DNA of 64,000 nt from a virus. Taxonomy: Duplodnaviria; Caudoviricetes. Below are positions 39,411-45,866 of the stretch, in pieces; position 1 is the first letter of the stretch; the number at the start of each line of letters is the position of its first letter. The notes beneath the pieces were generated by a model that was given only the letters and a program-made list of their open reading frames with translations, did no database searches and was not told the origin of the DNA. Location of the stretch: positions 1 through 64,000 of IMG/VR virus record IMGVR_UViG_3300028293_000005, one strand, 5' to 3'. The position numbers and the translations under genes were made by a program.

Positions 39411-42400
39411 ATGCCCGTTCTGGAGGACATCGCCAAAGGCGAGCAATTCACCGACGTCCCTCTTCAGCCCGGGGACGTCAAGCCGGTTTTGAGTCAGGAA
39501 GACCTGTCCACCGAGCATGCAAAAATGCGCGAGGCCTTTCGCGCCAAGGGTCTGCCCTTGCCGCCCCTGGCTCCGGGCGAGAAGGAGACAGTTAAACCCG
39601 CGGACCCTTTTGCCGCCGAGCAGCAGGTCCCTCACGACAAGTTCGCCGGGGAACAGCAAGTGCAGGACCCCTTCAAGGGTCAACGGCAGGCCGACGCCCT
39701 GGACGAGCGCACGCCCCAAGACTTGGCCAAGGACCCGAACTTTAAGATTCACGACTTCATTTTCGCGAATAAGGACAACATCTTTGGTGACCCTCAGCGA
39801 TATCAAAAGGCGCTGGACACCTATCGCGAGTCGCAGGCCCAGGGAATCACGGCCGCGAAAACTATTGAGTCCGTCAAGAAGGAAACGATTCCCTTGCTGA
39901 AGGATATCATCAAGTCCATTCCGAAACGTTTGGAGAACATCAGCGACATTGCTGTCTCGCCGCTGATTGCTGAAGCCATTGGGAAAGTTCAAAGCCCTGA
40001 GAAGCGCGCCCAGTGGGAAGACATGGCGGAAGCGGACAAAGAAAAAGCCATTGCGGAGGCCATTGCCGGCACGCAGACTGCCGTGGGCTCGCTCCAGGAC
40101 ATGGTGCGACAAGGGACCCGCAAGCTGTTAGGCCCCGCTCTCGAATTCGGTGGCAAGAAAGACTGGCGCAAAATTTCTGACGACGAAGTAAAAAATGAGC
40201 TATTCAAAGACCTCGGTTGGCGCGAAACCGTCGAAGGCCTCTCGCGCGGCGAAGGCGTCCAAGACCTCGTTGACAAGGGTGTGCAGCTCAACCCGGAAAA
40301 CATCAAGCTCCTCAGCCTCACAGACCCGATTACCTTGGTCGCCACTGGCGCGGGACTGAAAGCGGTCGGCGCGGCTGGCAAGGTTCTTTTTACTGCCGCG
40401 GATGAAGCCGGCGCGAACGCCGCTCTGGGCTACCTCGGTCGCCAAGCGGGAACCGCAGCGGCTAAGGGCGCACAGCTCGCGGGCCGCGGGGCGGAAGTGA
40501 CCGGTCAGGTCATCGGCAAGGCCGCTCACCTGCCGACGTTCACTGCCGCCGGTCTGGGCTCTGGCCACTTCTTCAAGGCAATGGCTGCGGCCGGCGCCGG
40601 AAAGCTGGCTGGCAAAATCATCGAGAAGGGCGGCACCCTCCTCCGCGAGGTTGGCGAAGCCGCTGGGGCGCCTGCCGAAGGCCAACTTTCGTTGGGCCTT
40701 GAACAGACGACCGGCGCAAAAGTTTTGAACGCGGCAAAAGCCGCGACTGCAGTTGTTGCACCGCCCGTGGTTGGCGCCGTCAAAGGCGCGGCAGCGACCG
40801 CTCCGCTTGCATTCGCCACCGACGAACCGCAAGGCGGTCTGCTCGGTGTCGGTGCGGTGGGCGGCGCTGTTCACGGAACCGTCTCTGGCATCAAAGGCGC
40901 GGTGGCCGAGGCTGGAGCCAAGCGATATTTTGACCCCGGACAAATCACCTGGGAAAAGACGCCTTCGCCCGGGTATGACAACTTCTCGGCCATGAATGCG
41001 GTCCATGACCAAGTGGCCGCGAGCGCGCCCGAGAACGCGCGGAACATGGTGAACAGCCTTAGGGAGACTTTGCGCCCCTTCGGAAAGAAACTCTTTTTGG
41101 TAGACGACGCCACGTATCAAAAGGCAATCGAGAACGATGCCGTGCGCGCGAACGGTGGCCAGCCCTTGTCTCCCGAGCAGCAGGCCGCGGTCGCCGAGGA
41201 ATCCAAGTCCCGCGGCGTCTCGAAGATTTTCATGGCCGATGACGCCGGCAAGGGAGAGATGGTCACGCTGGTCAAATCGACCGAGGACGCTCCGCATGAG
41301 GTCTCCCATGTTTTGGAATCCGTCCTGGCGCCCGACGCGCGAAAAGCGTTACACGATTCCGTCCGCGAAAATTATTCCGGCGACGAACTGCAACAGCTCA
41401 AGGACCATTACGAATCCCAGCTCGGCCGGAAGATGACGCCCGATGAAGTTGAAAGCGAATTCATCGCGGACAACTGGGCGAACCTGCTTTACAACACCTC
41501 ACTCGAATCGCTGGGGCTTCCGGCTCCGCGCCGCGGGTTCAAGCAGGTGATGCTCGATGCGTCTTTAGCCCTAGGGAACGCGCTTGGCGCGGACATGACC
41601 GCCGGCCGGAAAACTCCTGGATTAGACATCCAGCCCTCGTATTCTTTGCGCAAGCGACTCGTCGAAGCGTCCGGGGACATTTTGAGCGAGAGCAACCGTC
41701 TCGCCGCACAGCAGGCCACAGCTCCCGAAGTGAAGCTAGCCGCCCCAGAGGCCGCGGCTACCGTCACACCCGAGGAAGTGAAACCCGCGGCCCCGCCGTC
41801 CGAAGTCAAAATCCAGACGCCCGTGGAACCTGCCGCGCAGGGCGAACTCAATTTCGAACCGTCGGCCAAACCCGAAGCGGCACCGGCTGCGCCCCCTCCC
41901 GCGCCGGCACCCGCAGAAGAGGCTCCACCGACGGTTCGTCCAGATAAATCCGCGCGCCGCGCAGAGGTGACCAATACCGGGGTCGCCATGAAGTGGGCCG
42001 AGGACAAGCCCAACCGCGACGTCGTTGACACGGTCAACCAAGCCTTGGACGAAAAAGTCGGCCTAAAGGTGGAGCACTCCGGTGCGCCTACTGAGGTGTT
42101 CCAGCCCACGGAGCCAGAGCGCGAGGCTGAGATTGAAGCCGGCCGGGGGTTGCCTCCCGACTTGCGCGAGCAGCATTCCAAGGAACTCCGGCCAACCCGC
42201 TGGGAGACCATGAAGTCCGGCGAGCCGCAGCTCATTGCGCGCAGCACGGACAAAGTTTTGGCCAACGTTGACCGCGCGGTGCAATGGGCGAAAAGGACCG
42301 GCGAGACCGTGCCGTGGGAAACGGATGCCCAGGGCGCGCTGACTCCCGCTGGCGCAGACCAGCTTTTGGCGGACCTGAACACATATTGGGATAACCAGGA

Positions 42401-45400
42401 CCGCGGGTTCCGTGGCGGCGGTGAAAAACTCGTCCGCCCGCCCGCCAAACTGGGCGCGTCCATCCCCGCCGAACAGGGCGAGGGCGTTCCTCTGGGCGCG
42501 GATAAGGAGCAATGGCTTAATCTTTTGCAGGGCAGGGAAACTGGCCCGCCCGTGACGGCGCGTGCTGGCAAGGGACTCCCAGCGAACATCAAGGCGCAGG
42601 AAATCCGCGCGGCCCAGGGATTGCCCAGCGAGCGCATTACCGGCGGCGTCAACATTCCGGTCTACCCGGAAAAGGTCACCGGCGGTCGTGGCGCGGTTGA
42701 GGTCAAGGAAACCAACCCCCTGCGCAACCGTCTACGGGCTGCAGGCATGCCGGTGGGCGACCTGCACACGGTCGTCGAGCGGCTGAATGCGACGGACCTT
42801 TTGAAGGCAGAACGCCGGCCAGAGCTGACCGGTCGCGGCGGCTCCACCGATATCACGCGCGCGGGATTTTTGACAGAGAAGCCCGTGAGCGAAACCATCG
42901 ACGAGGTGGTGAACGACTCGCCAAAACAATGGCAGAACCGATTTGGACCGAACGCGACCCTGACTGGCTCGGCGTATGACTTGGGGTTGGGTTTGAAAAA
43001 CCCGGCGGACCTGAAGTCGCTGATGGACGCCCAGGACGCCGCGGTGAAAACCGCACAGGCGTCCATGGCCGAAGTGCGTGCTGGCAATTTCGACGCTTTG
43101 GACCGCGCGTCCGCTGACGCGACCAAGGCACAATTTTTCCGAGAAGCTGTCGAAGCGGCCACGGACTCCGGCTCGGCTGCCGGTCCAGCCGGTTGGCGTC
43201 GTTCACGGCCGAACAGTCAACCGCCATTCGCCACGCCGGAGTCCCGCAAGGGGTTCCTGACCGAGGAAAAGCCGGCCGAAGGCGAGCCCGATGCAATCAA
43301 GCAAGCGTCCATCCGCACCAAAGGCGGGCAGGTATTCACCGGCTCGTGGCACGGAGAAGCCTTGGACAATTTTTACGAAGCGGCGCGCAAGGGCGAGGTC
43401 AAAGACCTGCCCGCAGGCACGAACCTGACGGACCCTGACCCTTCAGGTTTGTATTCGTCCGGCTACCTGACCGACGGATTCAACACGAAGTCCGGAAAAT
43501 TTTTGGACCGCGCCCAGGCCCTGGAGCATTCCGTCAAAATCGGACAGTTCAAACCAGCCGATAAGGGCAACATCGCGCGCACAGGCGAACTCGAAGCGAA
43601 TGAGTTCACTGGACGCCGGGCTTTTCTCACGCCGGAGCCGTTGAAAAAAATTCAAGAGGGAGAAGACGGCACGGGCGAGACCTTCGACCGTCGCGGAAAA
43701 GTGAAGGACATTGCCGGCAAGCCATTGCTCGTGGTGACCTTGAGCAGCCGAGACGTCCCGCGGAGTCTTCTGTCGAACAAGGACCTGATTGATTCTTTCA
43801 AAGATGTTCCTGGGCACGTTCCCAACGTGGCCCTCGGCGTTTTTAACATCGCTCGACGGGGACCCAAAGGAGAACCGTTGACCTCGGTTGATTTGAATGT
43901 TTTGGTTCCCAAAGAACACTTGGAGAACGCAATCAAGTTCGCGCGCGACAACAATCAAGAATCCATCTGGGATGCGGAGAAGAGTGAACTGATTCCCACT
44001 GGCGGAACCGGGGAATCGAAATTGCGGGCCGAAGACTTTCCTGACGTGGCTCAAAAACTTGTGAAGGGTGAGCCTATTGACGTGGAAGCGCGCGGCGGCA
44101 ACCTGACCGAGACGCCGGTTCCGGAAATTCCGACGGACGAAGAAATCACGGACGCCCTGTCCGTGGACAAGCGTCCCTTTGTCGGAGAACACCGTGACCT
44201 GGACCCCGGCACTCCCGTCGGTGTCCGCATCGACATTCCCGCGTATAACCGCACGGGCAAGTTCGTGCAGACGATTCACGAAAAGGCCAGCGGTGGTCAA
44301 GTCGGCAAGCGCATTGGCTACGATTCGATTGTCACGCTCGATGACCCAACCTTTTTCAGCAACGAGAAGGGCGCCCGCAAAATCAAAGAGGGCGCTGCGA
44401 AGTTTCCGATTGCGACTGTCGAGGGCAAGTTTAATCCGGACCGGGAAGTTCCGGCGGACCTGGAAGATTGGACCGCGGTCGGATTCAACCCCACGAAGCA
44501 CTCCTACTTTTACGACAAGGCTACGGACGAGCCTGTGACGGGCGGCAGCAAGGCCGTCTCTGTGGGCAACACGGTGTATGTCAAAGACGCCACGTTCGGG
44601 ACCAAAGCCGAGGTGCAGGCGCGCGGGGGTTACCTGACCCCGGAGAACACCAACGTCACGCAGAAAAAGAAACCCGGGACGCCGGAATACAACGATTACG
44701 TCACGAACAAAATCGAGAAGTCCAAGCAGTTCCCCGAGGCGCACCCGTTGCAGTTCGTGACGGACGATAAGGGCGACTACATGGCCCAGTGGGACGGCGA
44801 ACCACTACCAATCAAGCGGCCCTACGATTTGTTTCACTCGGATTTGGCAGAAAAATCCGGGTCAAAAGAAGCGTATCGCAAGGACCTCGCCGCGAAAGTT
44901 GACGCTGCTTATCTCGAAGCGAAAAAGAACCCGGACGTCCATGCCGGCGAGACTTGGTATTCGGAATATCGGGCCAAGGCCAAAAATCTTTTGGGCGACG
45001 ACATGCAACTTTTCGCCGAACTGTTGGGCGCTACGTCTCCGCAACAGCTCGTCGGCCCGAACTTCAAGGACGCGCTTGCTGCGTATAACGAATTCCGGAA
45101 GGGCGCCTACGATGACATGCTCAAGAAGTATCAGGAAGGCAAACAGAAGTATGCCGCCGGAGATATTTCCGATTACATGGAAGCCAAGACGCGCGAGAAA
45201 CAAGAGCGGCTGGTAGCGAAGCGCGACGCGGGCAAGCTTTCCGCCGAGGAGTTCGCGGCCCAGGAAGCCAAGAACAAAAAGAAGGGCATCGAGGAGCCAA
45301 CCAAACAGGCTTACCTGAACTGGTGGCAAGAAACGAACAACCTGATTCCGACGAAGGAGACGGGGAAAAAGTTCGGCATGAACTCGCGCGCCGTGCTTCG

Positions 45401-45866
45401 CGTGCTGGGCCGCTCCTGGTTGCAAGGTGTCGAGGGTCCGAAGACCCCGAACTTCACTGGGAACCTCTCAGGTGCGTCTTTCAAGGCAACCATTGACGTG
45501 TGGGCCATGCGTCTGTTGCACCGTCTCTCCAATGAGGAATCCGGCAAGCCCTGGCGCATTCAATCCGCCAACGAGACGGGTATCGCTGACCCGGAATTTT
45601 TCTTCGGCCAGGACGTGATGCAGGACGTCGCCGACAAGCACGGAATCCAGGCCGACGCGCTGCAGGCAATCCTTTGGTTCGCGGAGAAGGACCATTACGA
45701 GAAGAACGGCTGGGTCAAGTCCGCCGGCAAGGAGAAGTCCGATTACAACTCGCTCATCGCGAAGACGACCAAAACACCCGAGGGCTTCCTCTCGCTGAAA
45801 GAGGTTGAAAAGAAGCCGAAAGGTGGTAAAGTAAAGAAGGCCGTTTTACCCGAGACCACACCATGA
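39411..45866 (+). CDS. large polyvalent/ejection protein, 2151 aa, with zincin HExxH and modular C-terminal half
   Basis: G/A-rich hydrophobic N-half, HEVSH at aa 629, five repeated junction motifs. Confidence 0.85.
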   Translation: MPVLEDIAKGEQFTDVPLQPGDVKPVLSQEDLSTEHAKMREAFRAKGLPLPPLAPGEKETVKPADPFAAEQQVPHDKFAGEQQVQDPFKGQRQADALDERTPQDLAKDPNFKIHDFIFANKDNIFGDPQRYQKALDTYRESQAQGITAAKTIESVKKETIPLLKDIIKSIPKRLENISDIAVSPLIAEAIGKVQSPEKRAQWEDMAEADKEKAIAEAIAGTQTAVGSLQDMVRQGTRKLLGPALEFGGKKDWRKISDDEVKNELFKDLGWRETVEGLSRGEGVQDLVDKGVQLNPENIKLLSLTDPITLVATGAGLKAVGAAGKVLFTAADEAGANAALGYLGRQAGTAAAKGAQLAGRGAEVTGQVIGKAAHLPTFTAAGLGSGHFFKAMAAAGAGKLAGKIIEKGGTLLREVGEAAGAPAEGQLSLGLEQTTGAKVLNAAKAATAVVAPPVVGAVKGAAATAPLAFATDEPQGGLLGVGAVGGAVHGTVSGIKGAVAEAGAKRYFDPGQITWEKTPSPGYDNFSAMNAVHDQVAASAPENARNMVNSLRETLRPFGKKLFLVDDATYQKAIENDAVRANGGQPLSPEQQAAVAEESKSRGVSKIFMADDAGKGEMVTLVKSTEDAPHEVSHVLESVLAPDARKALHDSVRENYSGDELQQLKDHYESQLGRKMTPDEVESEFIADNWANLLYNTSLESLGLPAPRRGFKQVMLDASLALGNALGADMTAGRKTPGLDIQPSYSLRKRLVEASGDILSESNRLAAQQATAPEVKLAAPEAAATVTPEEVKPAAPPSEVKIQTPVEPAAQGELNFEPSAKPEAAPAAPPPAPAPAEEAPPTVRPDKSARRAEVTNTGVAMKWAEDKPNRDVVDTVNQALDEKVGLKVEHSGAPTEVFQPTEPEREAEIEAGRGLPPDLREQHSKELRPTRWETMKSGEPQLIARSTDKVLANVDRAVQWAKRTGETVPWETDAQGALTPAGADQLLADLNTYWDNQDRGFRGGGEKLVRPPAKLGASIPAEQGEGVPLGADKEQWLNLLQGRETGPPVTARAGKGLPANIKAQEIRAAQGLPSERITGGVNIPVYPEKVTGGRGAVEVKETNPLRNRLRAAGMPVGDLHTVVERLNATDLLKAERRPELTGRGGSTDITRAGFLTEKPVSETIDEVVNDSPKQWQNRFGPNATLTGSAYDLGLGLKNPADLKSLMDAQDAAVKTAQASMAEVRAGNFDALDRASADATKAQFFREAVEAATDSGSAAGPAGWRRSRPNSQPPFATPESRKGFLTEEKPAEGEPDAIKQASIRTKGGQVFTGSWHGEALDNFYEAARKGEVKDLPAGTNLTDPDPSGLYSSGYLTDGFNTKSGKFLDRAQALEHSVKIGQFKPADKGNIARTGELEANEFTGRRAFLTPEPLKKIQEGEDGTGETFDRRGKVKDIAGKPLLVVTLSSRDVPRSLLSNKDLIDSFKDVPGHVPNVALGVFNIARRGPKGEPLTSVDLNVLVPKEHLENAIKFARDNNQESIWDAEKSELIPTGGTGESKLRAEDFPDVAQKLVKGEPIDVEARGGNLTETPVPEIPTDEEITDALSVDKRPFVGEHRDLDPGTPVGVRIDIPAYNRTGKFVQTIHEKASGGQVGKRIGYDSIVTLDDPTFFSNEKGARKIKEGAAKFPIATVEGKFNPDREVPADLEDWTAVGFNPTKHSYFYDKATDEPVTGGSKAVSVGNTVYVKDATFGTKAEVQARGGYLTPENTNVTQKKKPGTPEYNDYVTNKIEKSKQFPEAHPLQFVTDDKGDYMAQWDGEPLPIKRPYDLFHSDLAEKSGSKEAYRKDLAAKVDAAYLEAKKNPDVHAGETWYSEYRAKAKNLLGDDMQLFAELLGATSPQQLVGPNFKDALAAYNEFRKGAYDDMLKKYQEGKQKYAAGDISDYMEAKTREKQERLVAKRDAGKLSAEEFAAQEAKNKKKGIEEPTKQAYLNWWQETNNLIPTKETGKKFGMNSRAVLRVLGRSWLQGVEGPKTPNFTGNLSGASFKATIDVWAMRLLHRLSNEESGKPWRIQSANETGIADPEFFFGQDVMQDVADKHGIQADALQAILWFAEKDHYEKNGWVKSAGKEKSDYNSLIAKTTKTPEGFLSLKEVEKKPKGGKVKKAVLPETTP

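Follow-up and report, generated by a model that had tools for sequence, protein, structure and literature searches.

In the present study, we describe a giant gene (nt 39411-45866, + strand) in a 64,000-nucleotide stretch of phage DNA, hereafter the window, which covers bases 1-64000 of the 73,873-bp IMG/VR virus record IMGVR_UViG_3300028293_000005. The record is rated 100% complete and the phage is uncultured. The gene is a single open reading frame (ORF) encoding 2151 amino acids (aa), and its product is a late phage protein in which a conserved core with a zinc-protease-like domain is followed by swappable modules on short disordered linkers. The main finding is that five joints of this protein share one short peptide, R-x-[GA]-[FYN]-L-T-[EP]. 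Judging from sequence comparison and structure models, these joints are predicted cleavage sites, most probably for the zincin domain of the protein itself, and we give this reading about an even chance.

First, the motif recurs at the boundaries of unlike modules and is confined to this gene. A regular-expression scan located five copies, at aa 1150, 1279, 1402, 1561 and 1738, starting at nt 42858, 43245, 43614, 44091 and 44622. Copy 1, R-A-G-F-L-T-E (42858-42878), marks the end of the conserved core, and its R1150 is invariant throughout the family. It is followed by copy 2, R-K-G-F-L-T-E (43245-43265), copy 3, R-R-A-F-L-T-P (43614-43634), copy 4, R-G-G-N-L-T-E (44091-44111), which is the weakest, and copy 5, R-G-G-Y-L-T-P (44622-44642), all on the + strand. 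The ORF, an H-E-V-S-H stretch at aa 629-633 and the five copies were all found at the amino acid and nucleotide positions given in an earlier note made from the sequence alone, and the spacings of 129, 123, 159, 177 and 414 aa that it reported are correct. Within the protein, L-T-[EP] occurs six times, five of these being the motif. When the pattern was relaxed to [GA][FYNWM]-L-T-[EPD] and applied to all six frames of the window, six matches were observed in the frame of the gene, where simple arithmetic gives an expectation of ~0.03, and two among the remaining ~126,000 codons, neither of them in a coding frame. The sixth match (aa ~1351) lacks the Arg and lies within a confidently folded strand of module 2, and it is therefore not considered a joint. 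The relaxed pattern was absent from the other ORFs of the window, presumed capsid and scaffold genes included, and a narrower DNA pattern for G-[FY]-L-T gave a single match, the chance level, in the last 10 kb of the record. An N-glycosylation sequon, which the N-L-T of site 4 might have suggested, was rejected, with Phe or Tyr present at the other four sites.

The conservation resides in the peptide, and the peptide resides in the linkers. The five copies encode their Gly, Phe, Leu and Thr with different synonymous codons; the conservation is hence at the peptide level, and the peptide is under selection. In the AlphaFold model of aa 1131-2151 (mean predicted local distance difference test score, pLDDT, 80.8), every copy falls within an inter-domain segment of pLDDT <50, the five segments being aa 1131-1156, 1279-1287, 1397-1407, 1560-1570 and 1739-1751 for copies 1 to 5, respectively. 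Elsewhere, pLDDT drops below this value only at the two termini and in a single loop of 4 residues. No predicted domain spans any motif. Thus, as the earlier note had claimed, the motifs (5/5) delimit separate modules, which differ in predicted fold.

Second, the motif occurs in lineage-specific versions that change together within a protein. A search of 5.8 billion proteins yielded 103 metagenomic homologues of 1.2-3.7 kaa (thousand amino acids), mostly on contigs of 70-75 kb. All have the N-terminal ~1150 aa in common and most also the C-terminal ~400 aa, whereas the middle modules are swapped. Two joints are orthologous throughout the family, namely the end of the core (..T-D-x-x-R-x-G-aromatic..) and the joint before the C-terminal DUF7178 domain. 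Both carry the same version within one protein, and the versions (F/Y-L-T, F-L-P, F-S-P, F-S-V or F-M-P) differ between proteins. De novo counts revealed over-represented tripeptides that differ by member (F-L-P, F-S-P, F-S-V and F-M-P) and are located at module joints, F-L-P reaching up to 9 copies against 0.5 expected (p ~7e-9); the lineage-wise change was judged by eye together with these counts. Such concerted change at separate joints of a protein suggests a shared recognition partner. In the orthologue P0002, which is 94% identical, site 2 reads F-L-P in place of F-L-T and site 4 is absent. Compared with positions 44046-44130 of the window, the site-4 linker of P0002 has been replaced and is five residues shorter, the flanks are nearly identical, and almost all of the local divergence falls within this linker. 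These changes point to rapid turnover of sites and to the interchangeability of Thr and Pro. A distant lineage, L008, which has its own H-E-V-A-H domain, carries [FN]-R-P-E-[TS] six times over two adjoining ORFs. Because this lineage uses Asn at the aromatic position, Asn, as in site 4, is an accepted alternative. In this locus (L008:3-6993), a giant gene appears to be split into two ORFs (1314+ and 1032 aa) with a 53-nt overlap, both containing the junction peptide and the first containing H-E-V-A-H; the split may be a frameshift or a sequencing error.

Third, natural chain ends were observed at the joints. The homologue P0050 is a complete ORF within its contig, and its stop codon stands directly behind the Phe aligned to F1405 of site 3. 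In P0036, an extra module is followed by the C-terminal end R-I-P-F (L007:9771-9785), a similar R-x-x-F tail. We take this end to resemble the C-terminal tip of bacterial SSB (..D-I-P-F), a likeness that may be coincidence.

Fourth, modules are exchanged at the joints. Break-points were tallied by hand from BLAST alignments of the query with 48 homologues, which gave 174 internal block ends in aa 1131-1780. The blocks begin or end near aa 1150-1172, 1273-1311, 1402-1419, 1554-1573 and 1730-1754, and for 108 of the 174 ends (62%) the nearest motif Phe is no more than 15 aa away, against ~24% expected if uniform; relatedness among the sequences makes the ends non-independent, and hence no p-value is given. 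Copies of module 2 that stand alone or in tandem, with no neighbours, lack the motif. The earlier note had offered, next to cleavage, a linker or recombination joint for the swapping of cassettes. The exchange it anticipated is found, with relatives gaining, losing and swapping modules at the joints and one ending exactly there, and the idea of a joint at the nucleotide level is weakened by the differing codons of the copies.

The candidate enzyme is located in the same chain. For aa 1-1150, a model based on 42 sequences shows two confident domains, at aa ~513-730 and aa 851-1149. The first of these, aa 513-727 (40947-41591, +; pLDDT 80-92), is modelled as a zincin-like metallopeptidase domain, with a fold signal that is consistent and modest. 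It contains H-E-V-S-H at aa 629-633 (nt 41295-41309) and, starting at aa 679 (nt 41445), E-V-E-S-E-F, the third Glu of which is E683 (nt 41457-41459); H629, H633, E683 and A686 are invariant in 42/42 sequences. Strands are predicted at 561-564, 603-609 and 615-622, a helix at 627-638 bears H-E-V-S-H and a helix at 677-693 bears E683, a layout that matches the zincin core as described by Iyer et al. The closest fold matches are anthrax lethal factor (Z 5.5-5.8, ~145-173 residues aligned, catalytic domain included) and the Pro-Pro endopeptidases PPEP-1/2/3 (Z 4.8-5.5, most of those chains covered), followed by weaker matches to thermolysin-type proteins and PprI (aureolysin Z 3.2, PprI Z 4.7). 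Searches of PDB sequences with the family profile and the two single domains returned nothing meaningful, and in the ESM Atlas the domain matched only unnamed viral clusters. The modelled fold and the invariant ligands support the earlier note in its reading of the HExxH stretch as a zincin.

The protein is a member of the phage "polyvalent" class of Iyer et al. 2017 (PMC5512222). The placement rests on two findings, namely that relatives sharing the core have varying strings of domains, with ART-PolyVal, GNAT, Zeta toxin and LPD22/38/39 among them, and that matches in BFVD are similarly named, those to the C-terminal model being giant proteins of uncultured phages labelled ART-PolyVal, Zeta toxin, LT_GEWL, tail lysozyme or LPD-containing. 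The complete list of middle domains in the homologues comprises ART-PolyVal, GNAT acetyltransferases, PF26092, methyltransferases, Zeta toxin and LPD22/38/39. Membership in this class was thus borne out by the multi-domain architecture of the 2151-aa chain, its variability among relatives and the polyvalent-network domains found in proteins that share its core. Across the predicted models, the confident and separate domains number at least eight, and Pfam and PHROGs recognise two parts only, an L5 gp82-like domain (aa 1626-1721) and DUF7178 (aa 2001-2091). The gene is the last of a + strand block that also holds collagen-like tail-fibre genes, and its position after these genes is a contextual pointer to putative packaging in the virion. 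From the class of the protein and from virion proteomics of phi24B gp47, we infer that it is packaged and ejected. The majority of the remaining genes of the phage have no match.

The proposal that zincin domains process polyvalent proteins was made by Iyer et al. 2017, with the sites left undefined (PMC5512222). A literature search for junction peptides of this kind, and for sites of cleavage in polyvalent proteins, turned up nothing of relevance. Herein, we propose how such processing might proceed. A core of ~1150 aa with a lethal-factor-like zincin domain is followed by four exchangeable cargo modules and then by a C-terminal DNA-glycosylase-like fold. The R-x-G-[FYN]-L-T-[EP] peptides are exposed, disordered joints, which would be recognised by an endopeptidase peculiar to the phage lineage; cutting of the chain, either inside the capsid or once it has been ejected, would free the modules as separate proteins. 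A peptide that is present at every joint, disordered, selected at the protein level and changed in concert suggests a shared recognition partner. The protein's own zincin is favoured for this role because it is the sole protease-like element found in the genome, its ligands are invariant, the motif is confined to the gene, and searches of the 73.9-kb record for the S78, S77 and ClpP head-protease families gave no match, from which absence is not thereby proven. Judging from the two natural chain ends, the cut would fall just after the aromatic residue, positions before this residue or after the Pro/Thr being less favoured. Thermolysin-like enzymes would cut before an aromatic residue, and M34 enzymes often cut next to Pro. 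More tentatively, and at somewhat less than even chance, basic-x-x-aromatic-x-Pro/Thr might be a portable "cut here" signal for the protein's own lethal-factor-like zincin, with which it would co-evolve. A complex prediction for the zincin domain (aa 505-735, with Zn) and a 36-aa site-2 peptide scored 0.17 (mark 0.32) and speaks neither for nor against cleavage.

Several observations weigh against self-processing. No Pfam peptidase family matched the HExxH domain (thresholds of E<=10, E<=1 and E<=0.1 for the isolated domain, the complete protein and four homologues, respectively), and the zincin fold scores reach only Z 5-6. Position 630, which is Glu in the clade of the query, is Asp (H-D-A-G-H) in ~17 homologues. 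H-D-A-G-H is seen in P0009, P0010, P0013, P0017, P0020-P0029 and P0036. This is a large F-L-P clade, in which the two His persist together with the later Glu and the junction motif. It may represent a natural Glu-to-Asp zincin variant, and Asp in place of the catalytic Glu would weaken a standard zincin mechanism there. The absence of site 4 from P0002 indicates that the motif is not needed at every joint. Any model would predict break-points in linkers, and their position thus identifies the motif as a mark of linkers but not as a site of cutting. Some polyvalent proteins, e.g. N4 vRNAP, are packaged uncut (PMC5512222). In addition, a tblastn search of a cultured-phage collection gave only two weak matches, both to module 4, and no cultured relative.

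Among the rival explanations, the best placed is that the peptide is never cut. It would then be a short linear motif, in 5-10 copies per protein, that docks the chain to some partner, e.g. the portal, the inside of the capsid, a chaperone or a factor of the host, or that eases threading through the tail, the modules staying joined. Disorder, multivalency and lineage-dependent versions would also fit binding, the change from Glu to Asp in one clade would be harmless, and transfer without cutting is on record for N4 vRNAP and for some polyvalent proteins of plasmids (PMC5512222). However, the invariance of the metal ligands in every member and the natural chain ends exactly at the aromatic residue are left unexplained, and the reading offers no candidate partner; on balance, we consider an uncut docking or threading motif unlikely, yet deserving of serious attention.

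Cutting of the joints by another protease, either of the host or an unrecognised phage enzyme, with the zincin aimed at e.g. the cell wall or host proteins, is in our judgement less likely still. In a preprint on phi24B, the metallopeptidase of the giant virion protein of that phage is suggested to have a role at the cell wall, the H-D-x-x-H clade retains the motif, and junction peptides of a different kind are present in another lineage in proteins beside an S78 head protease. Nevertheless, the three head-protease family searches of the present genome were empty, the motif is found in no other ORF of the window, and a host protease would not obviously drive versions specific to phage lineages. 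Finally, the view that the motif is a mere recombination scar with no function as a peptide is highly improbable, since the copies have the peptide and not the codons in common, one version occupies all joints of a protein while relatives carry other versions, and the motif is kept at orthologous joints without exchange, even though modules do exchange at these points and the 94%-identical orthologues diverge mainly within a linker.

The five modules between and behind the motifs show five folds, namely a helical hairpin, two distinct alpha/beta folds, a beta-rich gp82-like fold and a large helical one, and all are encoded on the + strand. Module 1 (aa 1157-1278; 42879-43244) is the helical hairpin and module 3 (aa 1409-1560; 43635-44090) an alpha/beta domain, both without a family match. 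Module 2 (aa 1286-1401; 43266-43613), the other alpha/beta domain, is widespread in giant phage proteins, with 77 representative proteins matching at E<=0.001. Module 4 (aa 1568-1737; 44112-44621) is beta-rich and belongs to the family of mycobacteriophage L5 gp82 (PF25735, E=4e-8; phrog_586); stand-alone phage proteins of 120-140 aa in BFVD match it. Module 5 (aa 1745-2151; 44643-45866) is the conserved C-terminal DUF7178 domain (PF23802), for which a literature search found no mention of the family.

Within module 5, the two-lobed helical domain at aa ~1825-2112 (44883-45746) is modelled as an HhH-GPD DNA-glycosylase type fold. The best matches are MjaOgg (3knt; Z 9.1, 182/207 residues aligned) and Tm1821 (3n0u; Z 8.6), with 182-184 residues aligned in these two, and further matches were obtained to ROS1, OGG1, EndoIII, NTHL1, MagIII, MutYX, AlkA and Mag1 (Z 6-7.5). 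A near-invariant G-P-K2011 and D2029 stand 18 residues apart, and they may be the equivalent of the Lys/Asp pair of Nth, in which the hairpin Lys is followed by the catalytic Asp ~18-20 residues on. A DNA-glycosylase-like or DNA-end-binding domain would thus be located at the tail of a putative ejection protein, a role that is not known to have been described for DUF7178.

The remaining parts of the core, likewise on the + strand, comprise three regions. The N-terminal region (aa 1-512; 39411-40946) contains short D-P-F-x-G-E-Q-Q-V repeats, helices and a Gly/Ala-rich stretch of low pLDDT (aa ~373-512), with in-register conservation in the family. Its tandem repeats, of the type D-P/K-F-A/K-G-E-Q-Q-V, lie in a disordered stretch at aa ~64-92 (~39600-39690) and have the family consensus D-P-F-A-G. 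Behind the zincin-like domain, a Pro/Ala-rich disordered spacer (aa 731-850; 41601-41960; pLDDT <50) leads to the domain at aa 851-1149 (41961-42857; pLDDT 85-92), in which conservation within the family is highest. This domain contains a small Sm/WYL-like beta-barrel and is probably the functional heart of the core. WYL-domain proteins match this domain at Z 8-9 over ~85 residues, with no family match, and aa 851-1150 gave no match in the ESM Atlas. Its invariant residues (~30) are polar.

Junction peptides were also observed outside this family. In an unrelated phage lineage (L005:1-14322, on a 69.9-kb ENA contig), four multi-module proteins of 1600, 773, 396 and 1032 aa are encoded between the portal and capsid genes, the 1032-aa protein carrying an S78 protease. 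All four are punctuated by a longer junction peptide, either S-R-A-F-C-P-T-G-x-G-G-G-x-x-N-x-C or S-R-N-C-G-N-G-S-G-G-F-Q-x-G-N-x-C, and one of them ends in ..R-R-A, the first half of the peptide. The idea that this peptide is a head-protease site was left without support, the capsid protein of L005 lacking it. In P0116 (1162 aa), a portal protein (PF04860) is joined through one S-R-A-F-C-P-T-G to a gp82-like module, which is followed by more modules and a C-terminal H-E-L-A-H zincin-like motif. The cargo in this protein is thus fused straight to the portal.

Phages and plasmids are thought to inject polyvalent proteins as the payload by which the defences of the host are disarmed. Cutting of these proteins by zincins has been proposed since 2017 without evidence of sites, and the junction peptide supplies exact predicted cut sites and the corresponding mutants. 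The peptide also offers a rule by which modules could be delimited in the thousands of giant phage proteins that lack annotation, and an explanation of the points at which cassettes are exchanged. If it is indeed a portable cut signal, any module placed between two signals could be packaged in one chain and freed as an effector, which would explain the free shuffling of counter-defence cargo, and the autoprocessing hypothesis of 2017 would become a rule with predictable cut sites in many phage lineages. Should the peptide instead serve for docking and stay uncut, it would represent a packaging signal of a new kind.

The proposed arrangement can be compared with several known systems. In RNA-virus polyproteins, unrelated domains are arranged in a chain with one short motif between them, and this motif co-evolves with the virus's own protease. 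The present protein is similar in that unrelated domains are separated by one short motif that changes by lineage, and different in that it belongs to a DNA phage, in the context of virion cargo, with a zincin in place of a Cys/Ser protease and with cleavage that is only predicted. The internal proteins and Alt of T4, which are cut by gp21, and the inner-body proteins of phiKZ are carried in the head, injected, and cut at short motifs specific to the protease. Unlike these, the present protein belongs to a genome in which three head-protease searches were empty, its motif is found in one protein, and the candidate protease lies within the substrate. The zincins of MEROPS family M34 (lethal factor and PPEP-1/2/3) are the best matches among solved structures and, like the present domain, have HExxH and a Glu ~50 residues downstream. 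M34 enzymes read Pro-containing sites, and the family-wide motif described here is aromatic-x-Pro; with no match at the sequence level and modest Z, the link in specificity is only an analogy. In phi24B, gp47 is a 2811-aa LPD protein that has been detected in the virion by proteomics and proposed as an ejection protein (bioRxiv 10.64898/2026.04.10.717836). It is likewise a giant polyvalent protein with a metallopeptidase domain, from a podovirus, although the preprint reports no processing and the likeness is one of description, not of sequence comparison. Finally, the phage-type polyvalent proteins with a zincin-like MPTase hub, as described by Iyer et al. 2017 (PMC5512222), resemble the present protein in being giant and multi-domain, in having an HExxH domain and strings of domains that vary among relatives, and in that processing has been proposed for them. 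By contrast, that paper defines no cleavage or junction motif, the word "linker" never appears in it, and the Pfam model of the polyvalent zincin does not match here; in the family described herein, the N-terminal core and the C-terminal DUF7178 are fixed and the variable modules lie between them.

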